DNA from: Spirochaetia bacterium
Lineage (GTDB): Bacteria > Spirochaetota > Spirochaetia > CADAEX01
Direction: 5' to 3'
Assembly: GCA_963662795.1 (NCBI GenBank)
Contig: OY759746.1
Coordinates: 736,001 to 800,000 of the forward strand
DNA: 64,000 bases
The notes below the pieces were generated by a model. The model saw only the letters and a program-made list of their open reading frames with translations. It searched no databases and was not told where the DNA came from. The translations under genes were made by a program, and so were the position numbers. Shown piece by piece: positions 47,270-64,000 of the stretch; the stretch's first letter is position 1, and every line of letters begins with the position of its first letter.

Positions 47270-47271
47270 CC

Positions 47272-48395: not shown

Positions 48396-48447
48396 GGAGG
48401 TATTTAAATGGTAAAAAAATTAATGGAGGTATTTAAATGGTAAAAAA
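48396..48447 (+). repeat. direct duplication of RBS + start codon (23 bp, period 29)
   Basis: GGAGGTATTTAAATGGTAAAAAA at 48396 and 48425. Confidence 0.9.
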
Positions 48448-49525
48448 GGGTTCTAAACAAATAATTTCAATTATTTGTATGATCGCGCTGCTTACTGCTG
48501 TTGTTTTTGCAATGAGCGGATGCAGCGGTTCAAAAGAGACAGCTGCAGCAGGTGCTGACACTCCTAAAAAAGAACAGATCAAATGGAGACTTCAATCCTA
48601 TGCAGGTCCGGCTCTTAATGATCATGTAGTTAAAAACGCAATAGACGAGTTTAACATTGCCGCAAACGGTGAAATGGTCATTGATGTATATACAGCTGAC
48701 CAGCTTGTACCGCATGGCGAATTATTCAGGGCATTGCAGGAAGGCACAGTAGATGCGGTTGTCAGCGATGATGACTCAATGGCTTCCCCTGTTGATGTGT
48801 CAGTTTTCGGAGCATACTTTCCTCTTGCCGCTAGATACGGCCTTGATGTAAATGTACTCTGGAACTGGTACGGCCTTAATGAAATCTGGAAAGAAGCCTA
48901 TGATGAAGTAGAAGGCGTAACCTGGATAAGCCAGGGAAGCTGGGATCCGTGTAACTTCGCAACCACAAAACCGATAAGATCAGTAAAAGATTTTAAAGGC
49001 CTTAGAATGTACATGTTCCCGACAGGCGGCAAGTTCATGCAGCAGTTCGGCGTTGTTCCTATGGTTCTTCCTTATGAAGATGTAGAAATGGCTATTCAGA
49101 CTGGTATGCTTGACGGTGTTGCATGGTCAGGTATCACAGAAGACTATACAGTTGGATGGGCAGACGTAACAAAATATTACCTCACCAATCCTATTTCAGG
49201 TGCATGGTCAGGCGGCTGGTTTGTCAACACAAAAGCATGGGAAAAAGTTCCTCCGCACCTTCAGCAGATTTATAAACTCGCGATTGACAAATCGCATTAC
49301 TACAGACTCCACTGGTACTGGTGGGGAGAAGCTGAATACCGTGTAAACGGAGGAAAGCTTGAACTTACAACAATTCCTGATGCTGAATGGAAAGTAGTAG
49401 AAGATGCTGCAATAAAATACTGGGATGAAATTGCAGCTACAAGCCCGAGAAACGCGAAAGTTGTCGGCATCCTTAAAAAATATGTTGATACAATGAAAAA
49501 GGCAGGAGCTCCATACAGATACTAA
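48437..49525 (+). CDS. dctP: TRAP solute-binding lipoprotein, ethanolamine-binding-like subfamily
   Basis: WRLQSYAGPAL, SDDDSMASP, WDPC, WSGITEDYTVGW, SHYYR.HWYW; lacks the carboxylate-binding Arg (GLRMYMFPT). Confidence 0.85.
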   Translation: MVKKGSKQIISIICMIALLTAVVFAMSGCSGSKETAAAGADTPKKEQIKWRLQSYAGPALNDHVVKNAIDEFNIAANGEMVIDVYTADQLVPHGELFRALQEGTVDAVVSDDDSMASPVDVSVFGAYFPLAARYGLDVNVLWNWYGLNEIWKEAYDEVEGVTWISQGSWDPCNFATTKPIRSVKDFKGLRMYMFPTGGKFMQQFGVVPMVLPYEDVEMAIQTGMLDGVAWSGITEDYTVGWADVTKYYLTNPISGAWSGGWFVNTKAWEKVPPHLQQIYKLAIDKSHYYRLHWYWWGEAEYRVNGGKLELTTIPDAEWKVVEDAAIKYWDEIAATSPRNAKVVGILKKYVDTMKKAGAPYRY

Positions 49526-49633
49526 AGAGCCTGGCGATTGATTAATACTATATAGTATTTTCCCTTCCTGAAATCTGATATTAAGACAAGGGAAGGGATT
49601 TTATAAACCAGGGTAAAATGAGGAGGATTTTGG

Positions 49634-50170
49634 ATGAATAAAGCTGCGAAAGCCTATGTTCGGGTTATTGATAAATCAAGCCGCTTTTTCGGCAAGGTCG
49701 CAATGAGCATGGTTCTGGGAATGGTTGCGATCCTGCTCTACGAGGCAATATCAAGAACAATATTTAATAGACCACATATCTGGGCAGTCGAGATGGCCCA
49801 GTTTATAATGGCTGCATATTATCTGCTTGGAGGCGGTTATACCCTCCTTATCGATGGACATGTAAGGATGGATTTGCTTTACCACAGATGGACAGTAAAA
49901 CAAAAAGCTATGGCAGATGTTATAACTTTCTTTATTGTGTTGATCTATATGACTGTATTATCCTACGGTGCAATTCAGGGCATAATATATGCGATAAAAT
50001 ACAAACAGGTTTCATATTCCGCATGGTCTCCGTCAGTAGTACCTATCAAAATTATCATGACATTTGGAATATTAATGATGTTTTTGCAGGTAATATCTGA
50101 ACTGATCAAGGATATTGCTGTTGCCAGAGGCGAAAGCATTGAAATAGTTAGAGCGGAGGACAAGAAATGA
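49634..50170 (+). CDS. dctQ: TRAP small permease
   Basis: W..EMAQF, GHVRMDLLY, SAWSP. Confidence 0.92.
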   Translation: MNKAAKAYVRVIDKSSRFFGKVAMSMVLGMVAILLYEAISRTIFNRPHIWAVEMAQFIMAAYYLLGGGYTLLIDGHVRMDLLYHRWTVKQKAMADVITFFIVLIYMTVLSYGAIQGIIYAIKYKQVSYSAWSPSVVPIKIIMTFGILMMFLQVISELIKDIAVARGESIEIVRAEDKK

Positions 50171-51489
50171 GCGCTTATGGATTAATGGCAATTATGATGT
50201 TTTCTTCCATGATTGTTATGCTTCTCACCGGCAGACATATTTTTGCGGTAATCGGAGGCGTAGCTTCCATTTTTGCCCTATTGCTATGGGGCAAGGGCGG
50301 CGTAGGGATGGCATTCCAGGCAAGCTTTTCACTGCTTGTATGGTATCCTTTATTGACACTGCCGATTTTTATTTACATGGGTTACATGTTCGCAAAATCA
50401 GGAATTGCTGACGACCTTTATGAAATGATCCACGTGTGGATGGGCCCGGTAAGGGGCGGTCTTGCGATCGGAACAATCGGGCTCATGTCGATTATTTCAG
50501 CGATAAACGGTTTAAGTGTTGCAGGTATGGCGGTAGGAAGCACTATCGCGCTGCCGGAAATGCTTAAAAGAAAATATGATAAAAGAATGCTTACAGGAGT
50601 TATCCAGGCAGGCAGTTCACTCGGGATTCTTATCCCTCCCAGCGTAGTTCTTGTCCTTTACGGAATGATTGCCCGCCAGCCAGTCGGAAGGTTATGGCTC
50701 GCCGGTGTTTTCCCCGGATTGCTTCTTACAGGCATGTTTATAATATATATACTTGTACGCTGCTATTTCCAGCCCGAACTCGGCCCTACCCTGCCGCCTG
50801 AAGAAAGAAATATTCCCTGGGGGAAAAAACTTTCCCTGCTGAAGGGTGCGGTTATTCCTATCCTGATTATTTTTTCCATGTCAGGACTCTTTTTCATGGG
50901 GATTACAAGCCTGGTTGAAAGTTCAGCTGTAGGTGCTACTGCAACTACAATAGCTGCCCTTATTAAAAAAAGGCTTAACCTGAAAACAATGTATGAGGTT
51001 TTACGGGATACCTTAAGTGTAAGCTGTATGTTCATGTGGGTAATCCTTGCCGCCCTCGCTTTCGGAGCAATATTTGACGGTCTTGGAGCGGTACACGCAA
51101 TACAGGAACTTTTCCTGAGATACGGATTCGGCCCATGGGGAATCATAATAATGATGCAGCTCTCTTTTATAGCAATGGGTATGTTTCTTGACGATACAGC
51201 CATGCTGATAATCGTAGCTCCTCTTTATGTTCCTCTTGTAATAAAACTCGGTTTCGACCCTATCTGGTACGGCGTACTTTATACAATAACATGCCAGATA
51301 GCATATCTGACACCGCCTTTTGGATATAACCTCTTTCTTATGAAAGCCATGGCGCCAAAGGAAATAACGCTTGCGGATATCTACTGGTCTGTAATACCAT
51401 TCGTACTGGTAATGATTCTGGCTCTTGTTGTTATAATGATTTTCCCGAGTATAGCAACCTGGCTTCCCAACCTGTATTACAATAGATAA
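50167..51489 (+). CDS. dctM: TRAP large permease
   Basis: LGILIPPS, FLDD, YLTPPFGYNLF. Confidence 0.94.
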   Translation: MSAYGLMAIMMFSSMIVMLLTGRHIFAVIGGVASIFALLLWGKGGVGMAFQASFSLLVWYPLLTLPIFIYMGYMFAKSGIADDLYEMIHVWMGPVRGGLAIGTIGLMSIISAINGLSVAGMAVGSTIALPEMLKRKYDKRMLTGVIQAGSSLGILIPPSVVLVLYGMIARQPVGRLWLAGVFPGLLLTGMFIIYILVRCYFQPELGPTLPPEERNIPWGKKLSLLKGAVIPILIIFSMSGLFFMGITSLVESSAVGATATTIAALIKKRLNLKTMYEVLRDTLSVSCMFMWVILAALAFGAIFDGLGAVHAIQELFLRYGFGPWGIIIMMQLSFIAMGMFLDDTAMLIIVAPLYVPLVIKLGFDPIWYGVLYTITCQIAYLTPPFGYNLFLMKAMAPKEITLADIYWSVIPFVLVMILALVVIMIFPSIATWLPNLYYNR

Positions 51490-51506
51490 TATTTACTTAA
51501 TAATTT

Positions 51507-51558
51507 AAACCGCCTTCCTTGACAACCAGTCAGGTTTTAAAAGGAGGCGGTTTTTTTA
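51507..51558 (+). terminator. intrinsic terminator
   Basis: AAACCGCCTTC...GGAGGCGGTTT plus T run. Confidence 0.65.
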
Positions 51559-51621
51559 TCTCTCTGTTAAAATGTTTAATTTCAGCTGAAGCCGGTTTAA
51601 TTATCACACCCCAATCAAATC

Positions 51622-51660
51622 AAAAAAAGACCTGTATATTGATTAAATCAATATACAGGC
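51622..51660 (-). terminator. intrinsic terminator of the rpiB-transketolase operon
   Basis: A run then CCTGTATATTGAT-taa-ATCAATATACAGG. Confidence 0.7.
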
Positions 51661-51696
51661 CGGTTGTTATTTAATACTTAATAACAGTTTGTTGTT

Positions 51697-52659
51697 TTAT
51701 CCTCCGCAGCAGGAGCACTTACCTTTTGCAAGGAATTTTCTGCAGGTATCTGCGATCTGCGGTCCGAGAAGTCCGTAAAGACCGATCAGCTCATCATAAG
51801 GGCCGTTGCTTCCGAACTGGTCGTTAACGCCTATCATCCGCATCTCTGTCGGGCAGTTCTGTGCGAGAAGTTCAGCTATTGCTCCGCCCAGTCCTCCGTT
51901 TGTATAATGCTCTTCAACAGTTACAATTTTTCCAGTCTCTTCAGCTGCCTTTAAAATAAGTTCATTGTCAAGCGGCTTGATTGTGTGGATATTGATAAGC
52001 CTTACGCTCACTCCCTCTTTCTCCAGAATGTCGGCAGCTTCAGCTGCGCGGCAGAGGACTGTGCCTGTTCCGATTATGGTTATATCTCTGCCCTCTTTCA
52101 TGGTTATCCCTTTTCCGAGCTGGAATTTGTATTTTGACTCATCAAAAAGGACCGGCATGGGATCGCTTCCGATTTTCATGAATACAGGGCCTACATGCTC
52201 AATCATGGCAAGGGTTGCTGCCTTGATTTCAACCGGGTCGCCGGGATTCAGGATTGTCATTCCGGGAATTGTTCTCATCAGTGCTACATCTTCAAGAGAC
52301 TGATGTGTCGGGCCGAGATGATAATAGGAAAGCCCTGCGCATCTTCCAACTACCTTTACATTCTGCTTCATGTAGCCGAGATCAACTTTCATCTGGTCAA
52401 AGTTTCTTCCTGTAACAAACGGGGCTATTGTCGCGAATACCGGTATTTTTCCGGTTGTTGCAAGCCCTGCGCATATTCCTGTAATACCAGGTTCCATTAT
52501 CCCGAATTCAAGATGTCTTTCCGGGAATTTATTTTTAAACATTGTCATCTGGGAGCCGCTTGATGAGTCAGCAGATATTGCCATTACCCTGCTGTTTTTT
52601 TCTCCTGCTTCCGCAAGGGCTTCCCCGAAGGTTTTTCTGGGATCTTTTTTATCACTCAT
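51697..52659 (-). CDS. transketolase, C-terminal subunit
   Basis: EFGIME, GPTHQSLED, TIKPLD, EEH..NGGLG. Confidence 0.93.
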   Translation of the reverse strand: MSDKKDPRKTFGEALAEAGEKNSRVMAISADSSSGSQMTMFKNKFPERHLEFGIMEPGITGICAGLATTGKIPVFATIAPFVTGRNFDQMKVDLGYMKQNVKVVGRCAGLSYYHLGPTHQSLEDVALMRTIPGMTILNPGDPVEIKAATLAMIEHVGPVFMKIGSDPMPVLFDESKYKFQLGKGITMKEGRDITIIGTGTVLCRAAEAADILEKEGVSVRLINIHTIKPLDNELILKAAEETGKIVTVEEHYTNGGLGGAIAELLAQNCPTEMRMIGVNDQFGSNGPYDELIGLYGLLGPQIADTCRKFLAKGKCSCCGG

Positions 52660-53510
52660 GCTCCAAGCTCCTTTGCAACTGCATCTAATTCTTTTTCTGC
52701 CTGCACAACCTGTTCAGGACTTACCTTCCAGTAATGTGAAGCAGCTGTATCCTGAAGGAAGGAAATGCCCTTGGCCTTAAGGGTATTGCAGATAATAAGA
52801 GACGGTTTACCTTTTTCAAAAGGCGCATCAGTCAGTGTATCTACAATTTCTTTCAGGTTGTGCCCGTCGATTGAGCGGGTACTCCATCCAAAAGCCTTCC
52901 ATTTGTCAGCAAGAGGTTCGAAGTTCATGACATCGTTAGTTTTACCTCCAAGCTGGAATTTATTTCTGTCAACCATCACAACAAGATTGTCAGTCTTATG
53001 GTGGCTTGCAGCAGCTGCCGCTTCCCAGTTTGTCCCTTCTCCAAGTTCGCCGTCGCCCATGATTACATAAACTTTTGAGGAACTCTTGTCTATTCTTAGT
53101 CCTACAGCCATTCCGACCGCAATCGGGAGTCCGTGGCCCAGAGAGCCTGTATTGCTTTCTATACCAGGCAGCTTGTGCATATCAGGATGCCCCGGGAGTT
53201 TTGAATTAAGTTTGAAATAAGTATTGAAAAGATCTTTGCTGAAAAACCCAAGTTCCGCAAGAACAGCATAAACAATAAGGCATTTATGCCCTGCGGACAT
53301 GAGGAATCTGTCCCTGTCCTCCCTTTTCGGGTTTTTAGGGTCAATATTTTTCAGCACTTTATAGTAGAGCGCAGTCATAAGCTCTGTGGCAGACAGGGCA
53401 CCGCCGATATGGCCCGCATCTCCTGCCTTAATAATCGCAAGAACGTTTTTTCTCAGCTGAACAGCTCTTTTTTTAAGTTCAAGCTCTTCCGCATCTGTAA
53501 GTTTATACAT
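52656..53510 (-). CDS. transketolase, N-terminal subunit
   Basis: GHIGG, DRFLMSAGH, TGSLGHG, GDGE.GEG TPP motif. Confidence 0.93.
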   Translation of the reverse strand: MYKLTDAEELELKKRAVQLRKNVLAIIKAGDAGHIGGALSATELMTALYYKVLKNIDPKNPKREDRDRFLMSAGHKCLIVYAVLAELGFFSKDLFNTYFKLNSKLPGHPDMHKLPGIESNTGSLGHGLPIAVGMAVGLRIDKSSSKVYVIMGDGELGEGTNWEAAAAASHHKTDNLVVMVDRNKFQLGGKTNDVMNFEPLADKWKAFGWSTRSIDGHNLKEIVDTLTDAPFEKGKPSLIICNTLKAKGISFLQDTAASHYWKVSPEQVVQAEKELDAVAKELGA

Positions 53511-53523
53511 TTAGCATCCTCCG

Positions 53524-53967
53524 CTATTTTATATGCTCGTTATCATAAGTTTTATACCTGTTAACCTTGGGTTCTGATCTGCTGCCGTCTTCCCATTTTA
53601 CAGACATCCATGCCTTTACCAGCGCCTTCATATGCTCTATTCCGCAGGTCTGCGCACCAAGACACATGATGTTTGCATTATTACTCAGGATTGATCTTTC
53701 TGTTGAATAGACATCTGTACAGAGGGCCGCATAAGCTCCGTGTACCTTGTTTGCTGCTATGCTCATACCGATACCTGTTCCACAGAGCAGTATTCCTCTT
53801 TCCTGCCTGCCTGAAGCTACAGCTTCAGCTACTTTAAATGCTACATTTGCATATATCGCATCTGTGCTGCCGTAATCCTCAAATTCATGTCCAAGGTCAG
53901 TCAGAACTTTTTTTACAGCTTCTTTCTGATCTGCTGCATTTGGATCGCATCCAATAGCTAACTTCAT
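53524..53967 (-). CDS. RpiB/LacAB-family sugar-phosphate isomerase (DerI-like variant)
   Basis: CGTGIGMSIAANK; ERSILSNN and SRSEPKV replace the canonical AR.HN and GRH. Confidence 0.88.
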   Translation of the reverse strand: MKLAIGCDPNAADQKEAVKKVLTDLGHEFEDYGSTDAIYANVAFKVAEAVASGRQERGILLCGTGIGMSIAANKVHGAYAALCTDVYSTERSILSNNANIMCLGAQTCGIEHMKALVKAWMSVKWEDGSRSEPKVNRYKTYDNEHIK

Positions 53968-54024
53968 AATTATCTCCTCCTGAATGTAAAATACTTATAT
54001 TTTATTACTGGTCTCTTTACCCAG

Positions 54025-54447
54025 TTAATTCTCCCTTTTATAATACTTTTTTTCAATATACTTCCTTACTGCAACAGCATCCTTTTTATTATATCTTGCA
54101 AGCGGCCTATTATTCTTTGCCGGCTCGAAGTCTGAAAATGCTATAGCTGCCTGAGAAATGGAAAATATGTTTTCAGGTGAATCCAGTTTGTCCATAAACC
54201 ATATACCGATGACAGTTCCCTTCATTTTTTCGCCCGTAATTTCCCCCGCGGCAATATAACTGCCGGGATAATTTTCCGAAGGAATTGAATAGCAGTTTGA
54301 CAGAAGAAGATTTTCTGCCAGATGATCCGATAAAATGTTCACTGCTGAAGCAGGTGTTTTTTCAACAGGATTAAATGCCTTTTCTCTGCAGGCTGTAAAT
54401 ATTAATCCGGTCAGCAGCAATAATCCTAAATATATTGTCTTTTTCAT
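54025..54447 (-). CDS. hypothetical lipoprotein
   Basis: MKK + hydrophobic stretch + FTAC lipobox. Confidence 0.7.
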   Translation of the reverse strand: MKKTIYLGLLLLTGLIFTACREKAFNPVEKTPASAVNILSDHLAENLLLSNCYSIPSENYPGSYIAAGEITGEKMKGTVIGIWFMDKLDSPENIFSISQAAIAFSDFEPAKNNRPLARYNKKDAVAVRKYIEKKYYKREN

Positions 54448-54465
54448 TCTTTTCCCTGATAACGG

Positions 54466-54645
54466 CTACTTTATTATTTTTGCCAGAAGAAGTGCAGCGG
54501 CAATTGAAAAAATACCTGTCAATAATGCGATAAGCCATGGATTATATCCCATCGCCTGCCCATAACTGTTTCCAATTACAACACCTGTAATTCCGCCTAT
54601 TCCGCCGCCTATTATTCCCGCTGTCAATGCTTTCCTTCTTTCCAT
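54466..54645 (-). CDS. small 2-TM glycine-zipper membrane protein (59 aa)
   Basis: Manual translation MERRKALTAGIIGGGIGGITGVVIGNSYGQAMGYNPWLIALLTGIFSIAAALLLAKIIK; RBS GGAG; below the ORF-track cutoff. Confidence 0.7.
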   Translation of the reverse strand: MERRKALTAGIIGGGIGGITGVVIGNSYGQAMGYNPWLIALLTGIFSIAAALLLAKIIK

Positions 54646-54767
54646 AACTTCTCCAGTTAAACATATCGCACTTGTCTACATATGTACAAGTCTTATGATA
54701 GACTACAACCGGTATTTTATCAAGAACCTGACTTTTAAACTGAAATTTTTTTCCTGTAAAAAAAAAC

Positions 54768-54807
54768 TTGACAATCTGTATTTGTGGTTTATGATTAATT
54801 ATCATAA
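54768..54807 (+). promoter_or_regulatory. promoter of permease-kinase unit 1 with overlapping palindrome
   Basis: TTGACA-16 nt-TATGAT; TTATGAT-taatt-ATCATAA at 54789-54807. Confidence 0.6.
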
Positions 54808-54943
54808 TCGTGAACATTATTTACAAAACATATATTTTATATGTACTTAATGTTTTCTAAATAATATTTTTCAAAATACTTACACCTTAAAAAACCCTGC
54901 GTATACAGGTTTATTTTATTATTATTTTTTAAGGAGGAATCTT

Positions 54944-56365
54944 ATGGCAAATGCTACCCAAAGAGAAGGCACCGAGATGGTTAAAGGGATTAGTTTTATC
55001 GGCCTTGTCGCTCTTGCCAGCGGTACAGTTACAGGCGTCGGATTTCTTATGATGAGCGGCGACATTGTCGCCAGTGTTGGCAGTTTCAACCTGATTTGGT
55101 GTTACGTGATCGGAATGGCTGCAGAAATTATAGCCATGATGGCGACAGCTACCGTAGCTTCCAGTTATCCCTCGGCAGGAAGCGTTACGACCTATGCCAG
55201 AAAAATTATAGGCAGCGATACGCTGGGCTTTCTTACGGCAGTGGCCCTGTGGCTCGGCATGATCTCAATTGACGGTGCAGAGCTTATGGCACTCGGAAGA
55301 TATATTTATTACTTTCTTCCGCAAATTCATTACTACTGGTGGGGACTTGCAGTTACTGTAATCTTCATTATTATCAACCTCGCAGGTGTAGTAATGACAT
55401 CAAGGACACAGTCAATTCTTGGTATAATAATGTGGTCATGTCTGATTGCAGTTCCAATTGCAGTTCTTACATCAGGCAAGGCAAACCTTGCATACTGGAC
55501 AGTTCTCAAGGAAACAATCGGGTTATCAGACTGGATGACAGCCATCTTTTTCGGTGTTTACTGCTATGTCGGTTTTGTAACAATACTTCCTGCAGCAGAA
55601 GAAACAATTAATCCTGAGAAAAGAATCCCTGCAGCAATGCTTGTCGGAACACTCATTACAGGGTTTCTCTATATTTCCGGCGGTCTTGCAGTTATTGCGT
55701 TAAGACCTGAAAATGAGCTGCTTGCACTTGCACCTGAAGGACCTTTTGCGTCTGTATGGGTTAAAGCCATGGAAGTATTATGGAATGGAAAAGGCGCAGT
55801 TTTCATGAACTTTGCAGCTATTTCAACTTCTCTTACAACTGCCAATGCATGTGTATACGGCGGAGCGAGAATGCTTTACGGAATGTCAAGAGAAAGACAG
55901 CTTCCTGCAGTTTTCAGAAAAATTAATCCGGGACACAAAACCCCTACAATTCCAATTCTTGTAACCGGTGTTTTTATCCTCTTCTGTGTTATTTCAGGCG
56001 CTATCAGAATTGTATCTGTAATTGCCAACTTTGTATTCTTCCCTCTCTGGCTGGTTATTGCTATCGCTTCGTATCAAAACCTCTCTAATATCAAGAAAAG
56101 CGGAAAGAGCTATAAGGAAACGATCCCGTTTTATGTTCCCGGTGGAAGAATCTGGGCCTTTTTAACCATTGTCATATCAATAGGGTTTACAATTGTTACT
56201 TTTCTCGCGACAGACGATGTTGTTATCGGCGGTGGAATTGCGGTCGCATTTTTCGCAATCTGCTGGATATATTACGTCTGGTGGAAAAACTACAATAAAA
56301 AACAGGGTATTGATATCGTAGCTGAAGCGGCAAAATACGAATCAATTCCAGGAGACTGGAAGTAG
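54944..56365 (+). CDS. APC-family amino acid/amine permease, copy 1
   Basis: About 12 TM, GTVTGVG, YPSAGS, YVGF....AAEE, ARMLYGMSRE. Confidence 0.92.
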   Translation: MANATQREGTEMVKGISFIGLVALASGTVTGVGFLMMSGDIVASVGSFNLIWCYVIGMAAEIIAMMATATVASSYPSAGSVTTYARKIIGSDTLGFLTAVALWLGMISIDGAELMALGRYIYYFLPQIHYYWWGLAVTVIFIIINLAGVVMTSRTQSILGIIMWSCLIAVPIAVLTSGKANLAYWTVLKETIGLSDWMTAIFFGVYCYVGFVTILPAAEETINPEKRIPAAMLVGTLITGFLYISGGLAVIALRPENELLALAPEGPFASVWVKAMEVLWNGKGAVFMNFAAISTSLTTANACVYGGARMLYGMSRERQLPAVFRKINPGHKTPTIPILVTGVFILFCVISGAIRIVSVIANFVFFPLWLVIAIASYQNLSNIKKSGKSYKETIPFYVPGGRIWAFLTIVISIGFTIVTFLATDDVVIGGGIAVAFFAICWIYYVWWKNYNKKQGIDIVAEAAKYESIPGDWK

Positions 56366-56389
56366 GAATTACTATGTAATTTTATTATC

Positions 56390-56430
56390 AAAAAGAAACC
56401 TGAGAAATCATATTCCAGGTTTCTTTTTTT
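56390..56430 (+). terminator. intrinsic terminator between permease 1 and kinase 1
   Basis: AAAAAGAAACCTG...CAGGTTTCTTTTTTT. Confidence 0.65.
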
Positions 56431-56467
56431 AAATTGGAGATTCACAAAAATCTTCAGGAGGTTAAAA

Positions 56468-57421
56468 GTGACTGAAAAACTGAATCTGCTCCAGGCTGGA
56501 TTAACAGAAAAAAATATTGAAGATCTTATCCCGGAATGGAAAGGGTGCAATATTGATGTATCAGTTCTGAGCGGAGGAATAACCAATAAACTTTACCGGG
56601 CAAAATGTGAAAAAGGCGATGTCGCGATCAGAATATACGGCGACAAGACAGAAATGTTTATCAACAGGGACAGGGAAGCCCATGCCCTTCAGCAGATGGC
56701 TGATGCGGGAATATCTTCAAAACTAATTAAATATCTGCCGGAACACCATATTACTATTGTTGAATTTATAACAGGAAGCTATACACTTAAAAACAGCGAT
56801 TTTCTGAAAGATGAACTCAGGGAAACAATTATAGACCCTGTAAGACGTATCCACTCAAGCGGGGCAGTCCTTGATTATATTTTCAACCCATATGAGCAGT
56901 GTATTAAAATGTATAACATCTTAAATAATCTTAACGTCTCATTTCCGGAATTTGACATTGATGGAACCCTTGTAAAATTCAAGGTTCTTATTGATAAAAT
57001 AAACATACCTGTAAAAGATTATGTAATAACACATAATGATCTTCTCGCAGACAATTTTATTCTTGTTACTGATGAATATAAAGATAAGTTTGAGCAGCCT
57101 CTTTACATAATCGACTGGGAATACGGAGGGATGGGGCCGAAATATTATGACCTCGCCGATATGTTCCAGGAAATTCTGGTACCAAGGGATGTTGAATTGA
57201 AAATTACCGAAAGCTACTGCGAAGGAAGAGATTTCGATAAGGTACTTTATTACATAGACATGTTCAAACCGTTTCCTGATATTTACTGGTTTCTGTGGAG
57301 TCTTATTCAGAAAACTGTTTCAAAAATAGATTTTGATTTTTATAAATACGGAAATATTAAATATGATAATGCCCAGAAAAATATGAAATTCCTTGCAACT
57401 GAATACGGCATAAAATATTAG
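56468..57421 (+). CDS. choline/ethanolamine kinase family protein, copy 1
   Basis: LSGGITNK, IRIYG, Brenner motif HNDLLADNF, IIDWEYGG. Confidence 0.9.
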   Translation: MTEKLNLLQAGLTEKNIEDLIPEWKGCNIDVSVLSGGITNKLYRAKCEKGDVAIRIYGDKTEMFINRDREAHALQQMADAGISSKLIKYLPEHHITIVEFITGSYTLKNSDFLKDELRETIIDPVRRIHSSGAVLDYIFNPYEQCIKMYNILNNLNVSFPEFDIDGTLVKFKVLIDKINIPVKDYVITHNDLLADNFILVTDEYKDKFEQPLYIIDWEYGGMGPKYYDLADMFQEILVPRDVELKITESYCEGRDFDKVLYYIDMFKPFPDIYWFLWSLIQKTVSKIDFDFYKYGNIKYDNAQKNMKFLATEYGIKY

Positions 57422-57466
57422 GCACAGGATTTTCTTGATTTAATCAACCTGTTTAGTTAAAATTAC

Positions 57467-57492
57467 CCGGCTGTAAGCAGCAGCCGGTTTTT
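57467..57492 (+). terminator. intrinsic terminator
   Basis: CCGGCTG-taagcag-CAGCCGG-TTTTT. Confidence 0.7.
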
Positions 57493-57633
57493 AGTTCCGC
57501 TTATTAAATATATTCAAACTGCAAAAGTTGCTGTTATTCTACTGTTCCAGCCGGATTATTGCTTCTTTACGGATAGATCTCTTCAATCTTTCCTGGTTCT
57601 CTTTTAACTGTTCATTCTTTTGTCTGAAAAAAC

Positions 57634-57661
57634 TTGACAAACAGCTATTTTAGTTTAGCAT
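57634..57661 (+). promoter_or_regulatory. promoter of permease-kinase unit 2
   Basis: TTGACA-16 nt-TAGCAT, same layout as unit 1. Confidence 0.55.
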
Positions 57662-57781
57662 TAGAATAATATTCATTAATGTACAAAATAAACTTATTCA
57701 TGTTCTTTATGTTTATTAATGTCATTCCGCCAGATCGTTTTATGGCTGTTATAACAAATTTATTATAAAAAAAGGAGGCCT

Positions 57782-59230
57782 ATGCCGGAATCTGCCCCCA
57801 GGGAAGGGACCAGAATGATAAAAGGAATCAACTTTATTGGCCTGGTTGCCCTTGCCAGCGGAACTGTTACAGGTGTCGGATTTCTCATGATGAGCGGCGA
57901 TATTGTCGCCTCTGTCGGAAGCATCAACCTTGTCTGGTGCTATGCAATAGGAATGGCAGCTGAACTTATCGCAATGCTAAGTACCGCAACAATAGCCTCC
58001 TGCTACCCCTCTGCAGGAAGTGTGGCAACCTATGCAAGAAAATTAATCGGCAGCGATACGCTCGGTTTTCTTACGGCAATTGCCCTCTGGCTCGGCATGA
58101 TTGCCATTGACGGAGCTGAACTGATGGCTCTTGGAAGATATATTTATTTCTTTTTTCCCCAGATTCATTACTACTGGTGGGGCTTCATTGTAACACTTAT
58201 CTTCATCGGAATAAATCTTTTTGGAGTAGTCTTGACTTCAAGGACCCAGTCTGTACTCGGGATTCTGATGTGGTCTGCTCTCATCGCCGTCCCCCTCGCT
58301 GTTCTCTCTTCAGGAAAAGCTGATATTACCTATTGGACAGTGCTCAGGGAATCCATCGGATTTACTGACTGGATGACGGCAATCTTTTTCGGTGTTTACT
58401 GTTATGTTGGTTTTGTTACAATCCTGCCGGCAGCGGAGGAAACGGAAGAACCTGAAAAGAAAATACCGGCAGCCCTTGTTACAGGAACAGTTATCACCGG
58501 GATACTGTACATTTCCGGAGGTCTTGCCATAATCAGCCTGAGACCGGAAAATGAACTTCTCGCGCTTGCTCCGGAAGGGCCGTTCGCAAGTGTCTGGGTA
58601 AAGGCGATGGAGGCATTATGGGAGGGGAAAGGCGCCGTATTCATGAACTGGGCTGCAATATCAACCGCCCTTACAACGGCTAACGCATGCATATACGGCG
58701 GCGCAAGAATGCTTTACGGAATGGCAAGGGAAAGACAGCTGCCTGAAGCATTCAGAAGAGTCAGCCAGAAATACAAGACGCCGACAGTACCTATACTTGT
58801 CACCGGCGTATTTATCCTTTTTTCAGTATTTTCAGGAGCAATCAGGGTTGTTTCAGTAATTGCCAATTTCGTCTTTTTTCCACTCTGGCTGGTTATAGCT
58901 ATTGCATCATTTATCAATCTCTCAAACATAAAGGCCAACGGAAAAAATTACAGAGATGTAATACCTTTCTATGTACCGGGAGGGAGACTCTGGCCCGTGC
59001 TTTCCATTATAATGTCATCAGCTTTAACAATATTGACATTTCTTGCTAGAGACGATGTAGTAATGGGCGGATCGATTGCGGTGCTTTTTCTGGTTATATG
59101 CTGGTCTTACTATGTGTGGTGGAAAAACTATAACAGGAAGCAGGGGATTGATATTGTGGCAGAAGCAGCCAGACACGAATCAATTTACACGGACTGGCAC
59201 CGGAAATCTGCCGGATTTAATAAGAAATAA
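57782..59230 (+). CDS. APC-family amino acid/amine permease, copy 2
   Basis: Colinear paralog of 54944-56365. Confidence 0.92.
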   Translation: MPESAPREGTRMIKGINFIGLVALASGTVTGVGFLMMSGDIVASVGSINLVWCYAIGMAAELIAMLSTATIASCYPSAGSVATYARKLIGSDTLGFLTAIALWLGMIAIDGAELMALGRYIYFFFPQIHYYWWGFIVTLIFIGINLFGVVLTSRTQSVLGILMWSALIAVPLAVLSSGKADITYWTVLRESIGFTDWMTAIFFGVYCYVGFVTILPAAEETEEPEKKIPAALVTGTVITGILYISGGLAIISLRPENELLALAPEGPFASVWVKAMEALWEGKGAVFMNWAAISTALTTANACIYGGARMLYGMARERQLPEAFRRVSQKYKTPTVPILVTGVFILFSVFSGAIRVVSVIANFVFFPLWLVIAIASFINLSNIKANGKNYRDVIPFYVPGGRLWPVLSIIMSSALTILTFLARDDVVMGGSIAVLFLVICWSYYVWWKNYNRKQGIDIVAEAARHESIYTDWHRKSAGFNKK

Positions 59231-59312
59231 TAAGAGATACTGATAATAGTTTTATTTCAGGCTCACTTATTGGATATATATTTACAGAGATTATTTTTCA
59301 GGAGGCTGACTG

Positions 59313-60266
59313 ATGTCAGAAAAACCTAATCTGCTCGAAGTGGAGTTTACGGAAGAAATTGTCGCAGATCTTTTACCGGAATGGAAAGGGAGCGATATTG
59401 ATGTATCGGTTTTGAGCGGAGGAATTACCAACAAGCTTTACAGGGCCAGATGCAGCAAGGGTGATGTCGCCATAAGAATTTACGGTGATAAAACAGAAAT
59501 GTTTATCAACAGGGACAGGGAGGCTCATGCGCTTCAGCAGATGGCGGATGCCGGAATTACTTCCAAACTTATCAAATATCTGCCGGACAGAAATGTAACA
59601 ATTGTAGAATTTATAACCGGCAGTTATACAATGAAGAACAGCGACTTTTTGAAAGATGAACTTCGGGAAACAATAATGGATCCGGTTAGACGTATCCACT
59701 CAAGCGGAGCAGTGCTGGACTACATTTTCAACCCGTATGAACAATGTATTAAAATGAACAATATTTTAAAGAAACTCAACGTTACTTTCCCCGAATATGA
59801 TATTGAAGGGACCCTCGCAAAGCTAAAAATACTCAATGAGAAAATAAATATACCAATCAGGGATTATGTAATAACGCATAACGATCTTCTGGCGGATAAT
59901 TTTATCCTTGTTACAGATGAGTATAAAGACAGGTTTGAGCAGCCTATTTATATTATAGACTGGGAATATGGAGGAATGGGGCCGAAATACTATGATTTAG
60001 CTGATATGTTCCAGGAGATTCTTGTACCGCGTGATGCCGAGCTTAAAATTGTTGAAAGCTACTGTGAAGGAAAGGATTTCGAAAAAGTGCTTTATTACAT
60101 TGACATGTTCAAACCTTTCCCCGATATTTACTGGTTTCTCTGGAGCCTTATCCAGAAAACTGTTTCAACTATTGAATTTGATTTTTATACTTACGGCAGG
60201 ATTAAATATGATAACGCCCAAAACAATATTAAATACCTGCAGAAGGAATACGGAGTAAAAATCTAA
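59313..60266 (+). CDS. choline/ethanolamine kinase family protein, copy 2
   Basis: Same length (317 aa) and motifs as copy 1. Confidence 0.9.
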   Translation: MSEKPNLLEVEFTEEIVADLLPEWKGSDIDVSVLSGGITNKLYRARCSKGDVAIRIYGDKTEMFINRDREAHALQQMADAGITSKLIKYLPDRNVTIVEFITGSYTMKNSDFLKDELRETIMDPVRRIHSSGAVLDYIFNPYEQCIKMNNILKKLNVTFPEYDIEGTLAKLKILNEKINIPIRDYVITHNDLLADNFILVTDEYKDRFEQPIYIIDWEYGGMGPKYYDLADMFQEILVPRDAELKIVESYCEGKDFEKVLYYIDMFKPFPDIYWFLWSLIQKTVSTIEFDFYTYGRIKYDNAQNNIKYLQKEYGVKI

Positions 60267-60292
60267 AATCTTTTAATCTGCCTGCAGAATCG

Positions 60293-60333
60293 AAAGAACC
60301 GGTACCTGTCAGACAGAAAATACCGGTTCTTTT
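60293..60333. terminator. probable bidirectional terminator
   Basis: AAAGAACCGGTA...TACCGGTTCTTT between convergent genes. Confidence 0.7.
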
Positions 60334-60379: not shown

Positions 60380-61372
60380 TTACTCTGAAGTTAAAATCCT
60401 GAAAAGTTTTTCAGGCGTATCAGCAATAAAATCAGCGCCGGCCGCCCTCAGCCTCATCTCTGACCCCTTTGCGCCGCCTGAGGAGTCTCCGGTGACCCCT
60501 GGAGCCGAATAAGTGACACCCACGGCTGTAAATGGAAAAGAGGCTTTTTTAGCGGCAATCATGTCATCAGGCATGTCTCCAACATAGTAAAAACTGTCAA
60601 CAGAGCTGTCATCCGCCGTAATCTGCCTTGCAGCAGCATCAAGCATGAACGGCTCAGGTTTACTGAATGAAACCCTCCTGCCGCTTTTTTTCATCTCTTC
60701 AGCTTCAGCGGCAAGGCAATCATCCAGGGTTATAATTTTACTGAAAATATTTATGTTGTGCTTCCCGACCGGATACACAGCCTCAGCTGCAGGCCTGCCT
60801 GTCGCAATTGCAAGAATACTCCTTTCAGCAAGCTCAGAGAGCTTATTCCTTTCAACCAGCAGTTTTTCCCTCAGGATGAACCCATCTTCTTTATAATGCA
60901 TGGAAGAAAAGCCGTATGTTGATTTAAAGAGAACAGGGCCCAGATACACTTCCTGAAATATCTGTTTTATGATGTTGCCTGATCCGACATCACCTTTATA
61001 ATAAAAATCTGCAGCGTCTGAACGAAAGGACGGTACATCCCCAAGAAGTTTTTCAAGAGGGTGTGCCTCTGTCTCCAGAAAGGAAACAAGCGGTGAAATA
61101 TCCCAGCGCTCCCTGTCAAAATCATTTCCAGCTGACGGCACCTTTGACATAAGCAGGGTAAGTACACGGTGGGTCAGGTCCCAGTCGTTATTTAGTCCTC
61201 CGCTCTGTTTTACAACTGCAAGATCTGTAAGATCAAACAGGGGGTGTTTCAGTTTCTCAGCCCCATGGCAGGGGCTGAGAAATATTGAAGCAGTTTCACG
61301 CACTGTATCCCTGTAGGAATTTGATACATCAATAAGTACTCCGTCCATATCAAACACAATCAGTTTTTTCAT
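60380..61372 (-). CDS. HAD-superfamily hydrolase
   Basis: FDMDGVL, NNDWD, ATGRP, KPEP, VGDMPDD. Confidence 0.9.
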   Translation of the reverse strand: MKKLIVFDMDGVLIDVSNSYRDTVRETASIFLSPCHGAEKLKHPLFDLTDLAVVKQSGGLNNDWDLTHRVLTLLMSKVPSAGNDFDRERWDISPLVSFLETEAHPLEKLLGDVPSFRSDAADFYYKGDVGSGNIIKQIFQEVYLGPVLFKSTYGFSSMHYKEDGFILREKLLVERNKLSELAERSILAIATGRPAAEAVYPVGKHNINIFSKIITLDDCLAAEAEEMKKSGRRVSFSKPEPFMLDAAARQITADDSSVDSFYYVGDMPDDMIAAKKASFPFTAVGVTYSAPGVTGDSSGGAKGSEMRLRAAGADFIADTPEKLFRILTSE

Positions 61373-62061
61373 CTTATCAGCCTGCTGTTATTCAATAATT
61401 CCGGAAGCTCCGGAACTGATTTTATGTAGTTATATTTTTTACCGGTAAATCTTTTCCTCATCTTCCCGTCCGGGTCAATTAATACAGGAAAAGAGCACCA
61501 GTCGAGGAGCGGCAAATCTGTATATCCGTCACCGATAACTATTGTTTTAACAGGATCATATCCGAGAGCATTTGCGTGGGTAATTTTATCCTCACCCTTT
61601 CTTACATGATAGTCCATCCCTGAAATTCTGTTTCCCCTGTAGGTAAAATAATTTGATACAATTTTTGAAAAAAACCCGTCCGCTTTTCTCTTTTCAAGCG
61701 GCGGGTGGCATAAATCCCAGGTGCCGCAGCTGATTATGGACATCGGGAATCCTTTTTTATAAAGATCCGAGAATACATCTATATGGCTGTCAGGTATCTG
61801 AGAGGCAATTGAGGTGGTAACTTTTTCAATAACGAATTTTTCAGTATCCTTTACGATCCAGTTGAAATATTTTTTGAAGGAATGCCCAAGCAGCTGTTTT
61901 TGATCAGCATAAATAGCTGCCCTGCTGATAACTCTCTTTAAAAAAGGAAGTGAGTCTTTTTCAATGTTAATCAGATAATCAAGAAAAAACTGTTCGCTGT
62001 CATACGGCATAAAAGGTAAGATTGTACCGTCGTAATCCCATATTATATTCCATTTATTCAA
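61369..62061 (-). CDS. HAD-IB family phosphatase
   Basis: WDYDGT, IISCG, K, IGDGYTDLP. Confidence 0.85.
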   Translation of the reverse strand: MNKWNIIWDYDGTILPFMPYDSEQFFLDYLINIEKDSLPFLKRVISRAAIYADQKQLLGHSFKKYFNWIVKDTEKFVIEKVTTSIASQIPDSHIDVFSDLYKKGFPMSIISCGTWDLCHPPLEKRKADGFFSKIVSNYFTYRGNRISGMDYHVRKGEDKITHANALGYDPVKTIVIGDGYTDLPLLDWCSFPVLIDPDGKMRKRFTGKKYNYIKSVPELPELLNNSRLIR

Positions 62062-63325: not shown

Positions 63326-63904
63326 TTAAAGATTGCCTTTAAGGCCTATTTCCTGTGCTGCTTTCCTCATCCCTTCAATTGTCTGTGTAATAATCTCCTG
63401 CAGTTCCATTCCAAGCATCTGCGCCCCGTTTTCAATTACAGACCGGTCAACACCGGCTGCGAATCTTTTGTCTTTCCATTTTTTCATTACAGATTTTGCT
63501 GCAGTATCAAGAACGCTTTTAGAGGGTCTTACCATTGCGGTAGTCGCTACAAGCCCGGTCAGTTCGTCTATGGTATATAATATTTTCTCCATTCTGCTTT
63601 CAGGTTTTACATCTGAACAGATTCCCCAGCCGTGGCTTACAACAGCCCTTATATAATCCTCCGGCCACAGCTCTTCTTCAAGTATTTCTTTTGTTTTAGT
63701 GCAGTGCTGGTCAGGATATTTTTCATAATCAAGATCATGGATAAGCCCGATAATCCCCCATTTCTCCACATCTTCGTTTTCAAGTGCGGCAAAATGTCTC
63801 ATCACAGATTCAACAGCAAAAGCGTGTTTTATAAGACTGTCGCTTTGATTATATTTTTTAAGCAGATTCAAAGCTGCTTCCCTGTCTGGTATATTCCGGT
63901 TCAT
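63326..63904 (-). CDS. HDIG-domain metal-dependent hydrolase
   Basis: KHAFAVE, GLIHDLDYE, DELTG, RPSK; RBS GGAGG before ATG 63904. Confidence 0.9.
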   Translation of the reverse strand: MNRNIPDREAALNLLKKYNQSDSLIKHAFAVESVMRHFAALENEDVEKWGIIGLIHDLDYEKYPDQHCTKTKEILEEELWPEDYIRAVVSHGWGICSDVKPESRMEKILYTIDELTGLVATTAMVRPSKSVLDTAAKSVMKKWKDKRFAAGVDRSVIENGAQMLGMELQEIITQTIEGMRKAAQEIGLKGNL

Positions 63905-64000
63905 CTTTCCTCCCGTTACTTTGTAAATAATTTTATAAATATTTTTAAAAATCCGCCTTTTCGGAAAAAAACAACATACCCGCAATCATCAGGCAGATAG

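Follow-up and report, generated by a model that had tools for sequence, protein, structure and literature searches.

A kinase-centred gene set in Spirochaetia suggests a candidate route for the catabolism of a small amino alcohol

In guts, sediments and the ocean, bacteria draw much carbon and nitrogen from the ethanolamine of membrane phospholipids, and the known bacterial routes for its use are B12-dependent EutBC, gamma-glutamylation, and a kinase followed by a phospho-lyase. What use, then, would a bacterium have for an ethanolamine-type importer and two choline/ethanolamine-type kinases beside genes for sugar-phosphate enzymes? This question is raised by a 64,000-nucleotide stretch of a Spirochaetia genome (GenBank assembly GCA_963662795.1, contig OY759746.1, positions 736,001 to 800,000), referred to here as the window, in which a preliminary description made from the letters alone delimited a candidate amino-alcohol or amino-polyol utilisation cluster at 48437..60266. 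We propose, giving it about an even chance, that most of a conserved and undescribed set of catabolic genes lies in the window and that its substrate is a small amino alcohol, ethanolamine being the likeliest; such a set would need neither B12 nor glutamylation.

Genes were called from a listing of open reading frames (ORFs) and assigned to families by Pfam and NCBIfam scans covering the 21 ORFs of 43680-63985. Every gene that the preliminary description named lies where it had been placed, and the content of the cluster stands; its end does not, because a convergent operon (60380-63985) encoding an HD-domain protein, an iron-type alcohol dehydrogenase (Fe-ADH) and two HAD-family hydrolases adds to it.

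An ethanolamine-type importer beside two kinases

The cluster begins, on the plus strand, with genes for a transporter of the tripartite ATP-independent periplasmic (TRAP) type: a DctP-family solute-binding protein (SBP; 48437..49525; PF03480, E 4.6e-24), the small membrane subunit DctQ (49634..50170; PF04290, E 2e-19) and the large membrane subunit DctM (50167..51489; PF06808, E 7.2e-70). The likeness of this SBP to the ethanolamine-binding Csal_0678, which the preliminary description had noted, is borne out by a phmmer search that aligns residues 44-362 with PDB entries 4UAB/4XF5 (E 1.3e-136, 458.7 bits) and marks the protein as a close homologue. In 4UAB, according to the available text of PMC12410723, Csal_0678 holds bound ethanolamine on a platform Glu, named Glu220. 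The block AWSGITEDYTVGWA is identical in the window SBP and 4UAB, and Glu220 is assigned to it assuming a small tag offset. With its DctP fold, this close similarity and the retained platform-Glu block, the window protein fits the EtoX/Csal_0678 type, as judged from sequence. The accessible portion of PMC10132767 gives an HMM cut-off of e-60 for SBPs of this type, which is not strictly comparable with a phmmer E value from a different search, and reports that the Phaeobacter homologue EtoX binds ethanolamine with a Kd of 7.9 uM and is encoded in a gamma-glutamylation operon. As far as the available text of PMC4646407 describes it, Csal_0678 has no equivalent of the carboxylate-binding Arg-147 of SiaP. 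The window SBP has Tyr where the Csal_0678 stretch GKRVFTFP has Phe; the equivalence of this position with SiaP Arg-147 is tentative, a MAFFT alignment with the window's ordinary DctP being unreliable there.

Further along the plus strand lie the two pairs of an APC-family permease and a choline/ethanolamine-kinase-family kinase that had been described earlier, at 54944-57421 (permease 1, 54944..56365; kinase 1, 56468..57421) and 57782-60266 (permease 2, 57782..59230; kinase 2, 59313..60266). Both permeases match PF00324/PF13520, and the kinases exceed the PF01633 cut-off of 29 bits with 106.5 and 105.2 bits (E 2.2e-30 and 5.3e-30). Choline/ethanolamine kinases are defined by an HxDxxxxN catalytic loop and an IDxEY motif, which are fitted by THNDLLADNF and IIDWEYGG, carried by both proteins. 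The kinases score far below the cut-offs of the NCBIfam equivalogs GntI and ThiK; kinase 2 has 3dxq and 4r77 as its best PDB matches and belongs to a clade with 1065 relatives at E<=1e-20, all bearing generic names only. Permease 1 matches the ethanolamine permease model TIGR00908 weakly (63.7 bits, cut-off 381.75). It is context, namely the adjacency of the EtoX-type TRAP transporter, that suggests ethanolamine rather than choline, thiamine or another compound as the kinase substrate.

Kinases of this family could instead supply lipids or surface glycans with phosphoethanolamine or phosphocholine (Kennedy- or Lic-type), with neighbours that are unrelated, a head-group supply that the preliminary description had offered as an alternative. 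Membership of PF01633 and the PDB match to the LicA-type 4r77 would agree with this, as would the use of CDP-choline by some spirochaetes. However, there is no cytidylyltransferase beside any Choline_kinase-like gene of the genome (NTP_transf_3 has no match next to them and four weak matches elsewhere), nor does one recur in the neighbourhoods of the 80 kinase loci described below, and the partners are catabolic in type (a GntR/UTRA regulator, alanine dehydrogenase and an aminotransferase). The head-group alternative found no support, and we give it almost no credence.

The cluster had also been said to lack glutamylation genes and eutBC, besides licC, and searches of the genome (98% complete, one contig) agree. 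EutB (PF06751) has no match in it, in a search whose control matched E. coli; no dedicated gamma-glutamylase was found beside the TRAP genes, and the single genome-wide match to PF00120 (Gln-synt_C), a frame of 710 amino acids (aa) at 2.50 Mb, lies far from both EtoX-like TRAP loci (0.78 and 3.03 Mb). The second of these loci, outside the window (C1:3030153-3037054; 7153-14054 of locus L100), has genes for a PhnW-like class-V aminotransferase, a GlpK-like FGGY kinase and a LysR regulator on its flanks; its SBP is 60% identical to the window SBP and has GATELYTTGI by the platform Glu, against GITEDYTVGW in the window. It looks like a separate amino-alcohol or amino-diol module.

The two window kinases are 84% identical to each other and the two permeases 79%. 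Unit 2 resembles the single unit of a metagenome-assembled genome of the same genus (L001; kinase 2 98%, permease 2 96% identical), unit 1 resembles the single unit of another genus (L003/L004; permease 1 90%, kinase 1 79%), and both other same-genus genomes of a class sample introduced below have one kinase each. On these observations the pair is not a fresh in-place duplication; it arose either by an older duplication, followed by differential loss, or by acquisition. The two units may differ in substrate preference. Another tandem Choline_kinase-family pair, 23-27% identical to the window kinases, lies at C1:2360462-2362385 (7462-9385 of locus L101), preceded by an RpiR regulator, an M20 peptidase and a 403-aa protein without family match.

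An accessory isomerase and split transketolase

Between the importer and the permease-kinase units, a minus-strand operon, convergent with the TRAP genes and divergent from the units, encodes an RpiB/LacAB-family sugar-phosphate isomerase (53524..53967; PF02502, E 3.7e-43) and a transketolase split into an N-terminal, thiamine diphosphate (ThDP)-binding half (52656..53510; PF00456, E 2.5e-50) and a C-terminal half with the pyrimidine-binding and C domains (51697..52659; PF02779, PF02780). The two-subunit transketolase previously described in this divergent operon is complete, its ThDP, pyrimidine-binding and C-terminal domains being distributed over two genes that overlap by 4 bases.

The isomerase had been called both an atypical RpiB and DerI-like; the first label is supported and the second fails. 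It scores 121.3 on the rpiB equivalog TIGR01120 (cut-off 138.65) and 118.8 bits on the DerI equivalog NF051858 (cut-off 240), and passes the subfamily model PRK05571 (147.9 against 135). With the genome's other RpiB, which reaches 175.6 bits on PF02502 against 146.8 for the window copy, it shares 35% identity. The CGTG cysteine is kept, with GCDPNA in place of the canonical GCDHGA and RSEPKV in place of the canonical RHEERL.

A full-length 660-aa transketolase with an adjoining RpiB is kept elsewhere in the genome, which marks the window copies as accessory, presumably pathway-specific, paralogues; there are also three other split transketolases. The window proteins are closer to copies in two other genomes (L108 and L109, described below) than to paralogues in their own: the N-terminal half is 56-57% identical to the L108/L109 copies against 41-44% to own-genome paralogues, and the C-terminal half 59-61% against 34-39% to the genome's other split transketolases. 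The isomerase is 61, 55 and 73% identical to the copies in L108, L109 and L003, respectively. By these identities, the L108/L109 isomerase and transketolase proteins are orthologues of those in the window.

The same families recur around the kinase in other phyla

A search with kinase 2, taking one genome per species, returned 80 loci, which we grouped by identity and label into 9 spirochaete-type (61-98% identity), 37 from Desulfobacterales/Syntrophales (48-58%) and 34 distant loci (28-34%, mostly Thermoleophilia). Loci shorter than 12 kb numbered 4 of 9, 11 of 37 and 10 of 34 in these groups (15 of the 46 closer loci). An EtoX-type SBP with an identity of 60% or more is encoded within 3 of the 9 spirochaete-type and 22 of the 37 Desulfobacterales/Syntrophales loci (25 of 46 closer loci), and within none of the 34 distant ones. 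In Desulfobacterales, DctM–DctQ–SBP usually runs divergently from the kinase, and a Usp gene is often present. SBPs adjoining kinase homologues in other phyla are 70-82% identical to the window SBP and keep the platform-Glu block GITEDYTVGW unchanged.

Neighbour proteins were run by tblastn against all 80 loci; in the high-GC Thermoleophilia loci, where greedy longest-ORF calling was unreliable and probably produced wrong-strand ORFs, we relied on tblastn with proteins of known family. A module recurs that consists of a HisC-like aminotransferase (Aminotran_1_2), a 390-400-aa TAL_FSA-family protein (transaldolase-like hereafter), a transketolase and a GntR(UTRA) or DeoR regulator, joined in Desulfobacterales by alanine dehydrogenase. 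It is found in the Desulfobacterales loci L009, L010 and L040 and the Thermoleophilia loci L050, L056, L057 and L078, and the transaldolase-like gene occurs alone at the edge of L059, L068 and L079. The order in L009/L010 is kinase(–transketolase-like)–GntR–transaldolase-like–alanine dehydrogenase–aminotransferase, and L050, L057 and L078 combine a kinase homologue with the transaldolase-like gene, the aminotransferase and a split transketolase. All five Desulfobacterales genomes with TRAP–kinase genes but no aminotransferase nearby carry an alanine dehydrogenase–aminotransferase pair elsewhere (73-85% identity), and in the three best-matching of these genomes the 4-kb locus extends as far as a transaldolase-like gene.

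Two genomes of a 301-genome class sample have the kinase and the transaldolase-like gene on one contig. In the first (L108), aminotransferase–HAD-IB–kinase is convergent with transaldolase-like–RpiB-like–transketolase-N–transketolase-C as one tight operon; the second (L109) has DctM–SBP–kinase, aminotransferase–HAD, GntR and transaldolase-like–transketolase-N–transketolase-C, with RpiB-like–Usp–HD farther on. A third genome (L111) has GntR–aminotransferase–kinase. Across the sample, the kinase occurs in 19 genomes, the transaldolase-like gene in 15 and both in 9, so that the latter gene is present in 9 of 19 kinase-positive and 6 of 282 kinase-negative genomes, related genomes not being independent. 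The preliminary description had proposed a neighbourhood analysis of the kinase and SBP homologues and had named, as an outcome that would speak against it, modules that neither co-occur in other genomes nor are co-induced; they do co-occur, in L108/L109 and, for TRAP and kinase, in 25 of the 46 closer kinase loci. Chance adjacency of the isomerase and transketolase genes with the kinase was considered and rejected, given that the same families recur in different orders and phyla.

Could the transketolase-family enzyme act on a C2-phosphate in another way? The L010 order kinase–transketolase-like–GntR–transaldolase-like–alanine dehydrogenase–aminotransferase mirrors the Tpa/Ald/Xsc logic, and the Desulfobacterales transketolase-like proteins are divergent (Pfam E ~1e-12 per domain; NF004556, 222 bits against a cut-off of 575), as might suit a phosphoketolase- or Xsc-like elimination of phosphate from glycolaldehyde-phosphate by way of acetyl-ThDP to acetyl-phosphate or acetate. 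The spirochaete halves, however, are ordinary by score (PF00456, E 2.5e-50), and the transaldolase-like and RpiB-like enzymes of the L108 transketolase operon would have no role in it. We consider this reaction very unlikely.

The neighbourhoods also bear on the known kinase and phospho-lyase chemistry, familiar from Erwinia and from a mycobacterial aminopropanol microcompartment, by which a class-III pyridoxal phosphate (PLP) phospho-lyase encoded elsewhere would split phosphoethanolamine into acetaldehyde, ammonia and phosphate. Acetaldehyde would then be handled by Fe-ADH, or in relatives by aldehyde ferredoxin oxidoreductase (AFOR) or aldehyde dehydrogenase, with RpiB, transketolase and transaldolase as mere neighbours. 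Fe-ADH accompanies the kinase in 7 of the 9 spirochaete-type loci, AFOR is present in L006/L007 and, in weaker form (30-31% identity) and several kb off, in L014, L016 and L018, and L008 has an aldehyde dehydrogenase. The genome contains 8 Aminotran_3 (class-III) genes (from 9 matches, two of which form a single split frame), yet none is in the window and no such gene recurs around the 80 kinase loci. A phospho-lyase would moreover leave unexplained the repeated, variously ordered linkage of the kinase with HisC-like aminotransferase, alanine dehydrogenase, transaldolase-like, transketolase and RpiB-like genes in three phyla, and we allow it only a small chance.

The distant loci (L047-L080; Thermoleophilia and others, with ~30% kinase identity) carry genes for MtmB-like (20/34), MtbB-like (16/34) and corrinoid-binding proteins (23/34), together with DeoR regulators and APC permeases, and some have the aminotransferase–transaldolase-like–split-transketolase module. 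This suggests that corrinoid-dependent demethylation of N-methylated ethanolamines or choline feeds the same route there.

A distant operon supplies an aminotransferase and a transaldolase-like enzyme

No deaminase or transaminase had been seen in the cluster, a remark that holds; a HisC-paralogous aminotransferase is encoded ~320 kb away, in a three-gene GntR(UTRA)–aminotransferase–transaldolase-like operon of the same genome (locus L099, C1:462.7-465.9 kb; aminotransferase C1:463947-465122, transaldolase-like enzyme C1:462690-463862). Operons of the same three genes, 75-86% identical, occur in two related complete genomes (G001/G002), also away from the kinase locus. The pathway aminotransferase scores 245.6 bits on the HisC equivalog TIGR01141 (cut-off 276.55), its linked orthologues 255-271 and the L010 type 267, and a separate gene (L164:2454-3602) that is likely the housekeeping HisC reaches 314.6 bits. 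Such scores indicate that the pathway aminotransferases are HisC paralogues. The HisC-type family acts on amino-alcohol phosphates such as histidinol phosphate, converting R-CH(NH2)-CH2-OP to a 2-oxo-alkyl phosphate.

The transaldolase-like enzyme keeps the Schiff-base Lys and the TTNP motif, and carries Gln at the position of the Glu in the PDB transaldolases 3r5e and 7oey. All 13 cluster-linked copies examined have this Gln, as do 78 of the 80 representatives that are 330 aa or longer among the top 150 matches from a library of 1.84 billion proteins, in which the clade is rare (73 representatives at E<=1e-30). With Gln in place of Glu the enzyme does not qualify as a canonical transaldolase, and it falls far below the cut-offs of all NCBIfam transaldolase models. 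In fructose-6-phosphate aldolase (FSA), Gln59 is presumably the counterpart of the Glu of the transaldolase TalB. The available text of PMC13259622 places Gln59 of the E. coli FSA in the active site, at the catalytic water site. Besides the 390-400-aa proteins, shorter relatives (~345-365 aa) also have the Gln, so a wider Gln-type transaldolase-like clade exists.

Insertion sequence (IS)-type fragments of the same kinds (Mutator-family transposase; DUF4372 + DDE_Tnp_1) lie at window 39998-41551 and at 11299-16585 of L099, beside the GntR–aminotransferase–transaldolase-like operon. Rearrangement by these elements may explain why parts that adjoin one another in L108/L109 lie apart here.

Because HisC-type enzymes normally yield a 2-oxo-alkyl phosphate from R-CH(NH2)-CH2-OP, the same enzyme logic could serve an amino alcohol or amino-polyol of the C3-C4 range (for example L-alaninol, serinol or 2-amino-butanetriol), giving a ketose-1-phosphate for RpiB, transketolase and transaldolase, as in the amino-polyol version of the preliminary description. 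The two diverged permease-kinase units (79-84% identity) could take two substrates, the genome has a second EtoX-like TRAP transporter (60% identity) with different partners, and CqsR-type ethanolamine sensors also accept serinol and L-alaninol, in the text available from PMC12410723. The identity of the kinase-adjoining SBPs across phyla (70-82%, with GITEDYTVGW kept) nevertheless points to the same small ligand, a ketone product would be unfit as a transketolase or transaldolase acceptor, and dihydroxyacetone phosphate from serinol phosphate would need neither enzyme. A larger substrate is in our view unlikely, and ethanolamine is preferred below.

A phosphatase and alcohol dehydrogenase operon

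The convergent operon that extends the cluster is on the minus strand and encodes the HD-domain protein, its first gene (63326..63985; PF01966, E 1.2e-4), the Fe-ADH (62058..63296; PF00465/PF25137), a HAD-IB family hydrolase (61369..62061; PF12710) and a HAD-IA hydrolase of 330 aa that has a long cap insertion and is TIGR01548-like in the Pfam and NCBIfam scans (60380..61372). It is syntenic with the kinase in relatives, the Fe-ADH in L001 and L003-L005 and the HD protein as 75-93% identical copies in the same place in L001, L003 and L004. The best model for the Fe-ADH is lactaldehyde reductase (TIGR02638; 185.8 bits, cut-off 523). PDB searches returned no relative of the HD protein, nothing useful for the HAD-IB hydrolase and, as the best match of the 330-aa HAD, 1qyi (E 6.8e-5), likewise of no use.

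A search with the 330-aa HAD gave 41 loci from Spirochaetes and Desulfobacterales, in 16 of which HAD-IB is paired with it. Its Desulfobacterales homologues (43-51% identical) follow TRAP–Usp–HAD-IB genes or stand beside transketolase-like, aminotransferase, alanine dehydrogenase and transaldolase-like genes: GntR–transketolase-like–kinase is divergent from SBP…Usp–HAD-IB–330-aa HAD in L139 and L148, the 330-aa HAD adjoins transketolase-like…aminotransferase–alanine dehydrogenase–transaldolase-like–GntR in L160, and HAD-IB–330-aa HAD is near GntR–aminotransferase in L147. Distant homologues (23-30% identity) lie directly 3' of HisC-like genes in L154-L156, L158 and L159, and L108 has a 33% identical HAD-IB copy between its aminotransferase and kinase. 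On this distribution, both hydrolases would belong to the gene set. The HAD of L109 was considered as an orthologue of the window HAD-IB and rejected, the match covering 37 residues; only the family recurs there.

These phosphatases raise another alternative, in which nitrogen is scavenged without carbon assimilation. Phosphorylation would serve only to make the amine acceptable to the HisC-type enzyme, the HADs would dephosphorylate glycolaldehyde-phosphate, and a FucO-like Fe-ADH would reduce the product to ethylene glycol (with oxidation to glycolate in relatives), leaving transketolase, transaldolase and RpiB at most a minor salvage role. HAD-IB and the 330-aa HAD are core partners, following TRAP–Usp genes in L139/L148; a HAD lies between or next to the aminotransferase and kinase in L108/L109, the distant HAD homologues sit 3' of HisC-like genes in the five loci just named, HisJ-family PHP phosphatases are near the kinase in L006-L008 (directly upstream in L008, ~5 kb off in L006/L007), and lactaldehyde reductase is the best Fe-ADH model. 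Scavenging does not explain, however, why the transaldolase-like–RpiB–transketolase operon of L108 is convergent with aminotransferase–HAD–kinase, nor the accessory transketolase and transaldolase genes in three phyla, and Fe-ADH is found in 0 of 37 Desulfobacterales/Syntrophales loci. We judge it improbable and return to an assimilatory route.

A proposed route and the points that weigh against it

In the route that we propose, the EtoX/Csal_0678-type TRAP transporter and the two APC permeases would, by homology, import the amino alcohol, and both kinases would form its O-phosphate, phosphoethanolamine, as their family and conserved transporter adjacency suggest. The HisC-paralogous aminotransferase, by analogy with the action of HisC-type enzymes on 2-amino-alcohol phosphates, would convert phosphoethanolamine to glycolaldehyde-2-phosphate, in Desulfobacterales with pyruvate as amino acceptor recycled by alanine dehydrogenase. 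The Gln-type TAL/FSA-like Schiff-base enzyme, the accessory split transketolase and the RpiB-like isomerase would then bring the C2-phosphate into the sugar-phosphate pool. One candidate sequence runs from glycolaldehyde-phosphate by way of erythrulose-4-phosphate and erythrose-4-phosphate to fructose-6-phosphate, a phosphate analogue of a reversed sulfo-transketolase (sulfo-TK) pathway; equally possible is a transaldolase or aldolase step that joins glycolaldehyde-phosphate to a dihydroxyacetone unit to give xylulose-5-phosphate, or to glycolaldehyde to give a tetrose-4-phosphate, which would provide a role for the Gln-type enzyme and a phosphatase. The HD–Fe-ADH–HAD-IB–HAD operon would be in the same regulon and is probably a dephosphorylation and reduction branch (glycolaldehyde-phosphate to glycolaldehyde to ethylene glycol) or trims phosphorylated intermediates, this side-branch role being the weakest part of the model. 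UTRA-type GntR proteins usually sense phosphorylated intermediates, and the GntR(UTRA) regulator probably does so here. The preliminary description had ordered the steps as import, phosphorylation, deamination elsewhere to a ketose phosphate, and entry into the pentose phosphate pathway; the link between the modules is upheld by comparative genomics, with the chemistry still conjectural, and the ketose phosphate falls away, transamination of phosphoethanolamine giving an aldose phosphate.

Several observations weigh against this proposal. The aminotransferase–transaldolase-like operon is not adjacent to the window cluster in this genome, and the spirochaete aminotransferase and transaldolase-like proteins are only 35-38% identical to those of Desulfobacterales and Thermoleophilia, so that their equivalence rests on family, motif and context. 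Ten of the 19 kinase-positive genomes of the class sample have no transaldolase-like gene (six come from a single family, and for two more the completeness is 81% and 58%), and 6 genomes have the transaldolase-like gene without the kinase. The L006/L007-type spirochaete loci combine TRAP–kinase genes with a HisJ-type PHP phosphatase, HD_5, AFOR, Fe-ADH and a class-I GATase-like gene, and their genomes gave no close aminotransferase orthologue at E 1e-30, which indicates that a second downstream solution exists; the HisC-like and transaldolase-like module is missing from L006 and L007, and also from L008 with its aldehyde dehydrogenase. This second solution may apply in the six-genome kinase-only family, the locus families not having been matched to the sample.

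The chemistry and the substrate are also open to objection. From glycolaldehyde-phosphate, transketolase is expected to give the 3S ketose, L-erythrulose-4-phosphate, and not the D-isomer of known DerI enzymes, and the two phosphatase-family proteins beside the kinase have no place in a purely phosphorylated route. Csal_0678 reportedly also binds (S)-2-amino-1-propanol, in 4XF5, and the substrate may then not be ethanolamine. Glycolaldehyde-2-phosphate was not found in the literature as an established metabolite of a natural pathway, and a full-text search, with subscription journals and supplements largely outside its coverage, returned no route linking phosphoethanolamine or glycolaldehyde phosphate with ethanolamine use through an aminotransferase, transketolase or transaldolase.

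More speculatively, glycolaldehyde-2-phosphate could be a genuine central intermediate of natural C2 assimilation, from which a Gln-type TAL/FSA-like aldolase, possibly condensing glycolaldehyde with glycolaldehyde-phosphate, an accessory transketolase and an RpiB-like isomerase build erythrose-4-phosphate or xylulose-5-phosphate. This would be the phosphate counterpart of a reversed sulfo-TK pathway and a fourth, B12-independent pathway in anaerobic Spirochaetota and Desulfobacterota and in Thermoleophilia, where corrinoid-dependent N-demethylation of methylated ethanolamines would feed it. We hold this wider picture tentatively and think it rather doubtful in full. A fourth ethanolamine route, if real, could be used by anaerobes without B12 or microcompartments, and would give functions to a widespread clade named only as choline/ethanolamine kinase family and to the rare Gln-type transaldolase-like clade. 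It would also supply natural enzymes for the assimilation of glycolaldehyde or its phosphate, an aim of synthetic C2 metabolism.

Other features of the window

A 140-aa ORF with a lipoprotein-like N-terminus (…LIFTAC…) and no family match lies on the minus strand at 54025..54447; copies 47-51% identical are in the same position in L003/L004 and none is in L001, and its membership of the pathway is uncertain. Each permease-kinase unit has a promoter-like site 5' of it, the site before permease 1 being TTGACA-16-TATGAT (54768..54795, plus strand; a consensus match only). The upstream regions of the two units have only the -35 promoter core in common, and an inverted repeat of unit 1 is not kept in unit 2. 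An Rfam search of 47000-64000 gave no match at E<=0.1, and hence no known riboswitch before the permease genes. Consensus scans alone indicate two terminator-like hairpins, one with a 15-bp stem and a T run 3' of the C-terminal transketolase half, between the convergent TRAP and transketolase operons (51629..51661, minus strand), and one 3' of kinase 1, between the two units (57467..57487, plus strand).

Beyond the HD–Fe-ADH–HAD-IB–HAD operon lie unrelated genes (an NHL-repeat protein, TPR, SurE and galactokinase). On the 5' side of the cluster, 42610-48009 encodes an ordinary DctP-type TRAP transporter with a GntR(FCD) regulator, an octopine/nopaline-dehydrogenase-family protein and an Asp/Glu-racemase-like protein (PRK07475, 275.5 bits), which may form a utilisation unit for an opine-type compound; in L003 its counterpart directly adjoins the transketolase operon, without an intervening EtoX-type TRAP transporter. 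Still farther 5', 32616-37552 contains a TAXI-type SBP (NMT1_3) and a 650-aa fused DctM-type permease, followed by a 219-aa, possibly truncated, 2-hydroxyacid-dehydrogenase ORF and a class-V aminotransferase.

Comparison with known systems

The importer has the same three subunits, and a close SBP homologue, as the EtoXVW/Csal_0678 systems of Phaeobacter sp. MED193 and Chromohalobacter salexigens. EtoXVW operons encode an ethanolamine gamma-glutamylase, two dehydrogenases and an amidohydrolase according to the accessible portion of PMC10132767; none of these is in the window, where a kinase is the conserved partner instead. Like the kinase and phospho-lyase route of Erwinia and mycobacteria, the gene set pairs an APC-type permease with a kinase of the APH/choline-kinase superfamily that would make an O-phosphate. 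Unlike that route, its linked PLP enzyme is HisC-type (class I/II), often accompanied by alanine dehydrogenase, and not class III, and, in contrast to the mycobacterial aminopropanol route, it includes transaldolase-like, transketolase and RpiB-like genes and no microcompartment genes.

Erythritol and threitol catabolism by DerI/EryI likewise uses an RpiB-family isomerase to carry a tetrulose phosphate to erythrose-4-phosphate and the pentose-phosphate pathway, as is proposed here, although the window isomerase falls short of the DerI cut-off (118.8 bits against 240) and polyol kinase and dehydrogenase genes do not accompany it. The Tpa–Ald–Xsc pathway of taurine combines an aminotransferase, alanine dehydrogenase and a ThDP enzyme acting on an X-acetaldehyde, as the Desulfobacterales locus L010 may; here, by contrast, a kinase would add the anionic group, the ThDP enzyme belongs to the transketolase family and a transaldolase-like protein is always present.

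The sulfo-TK pathway, in the available text of PMC9594981, uses the split transketolase SqwGH, the PF02502 isomerase SqwI and the PF00465 reductase SqwF to interconvert sulfofructose, sulfoerythrose, sulfoerythrulose and sulfoacetaldehyde. Sulfoquinovosidase, sulfoquinovose isomerase and sulfonate exporter families have no match among the 21 ORFs of 43680-63985, the scope of that search. By the same source, the likeness lies in the trio of enzyme families and in the X-CH2-CHO, 4-X-erythrose, 4-X-erythrulose and 6-X-fructose skeletons. A sulfonate is approximately isosteric with a phosphate ester. The gene set described here differs in its linkage with an amine importer, a kinase and an aminotransferase, and its proposed direction is assimilatory, from C2 to C4 to C6, rather than degradative.

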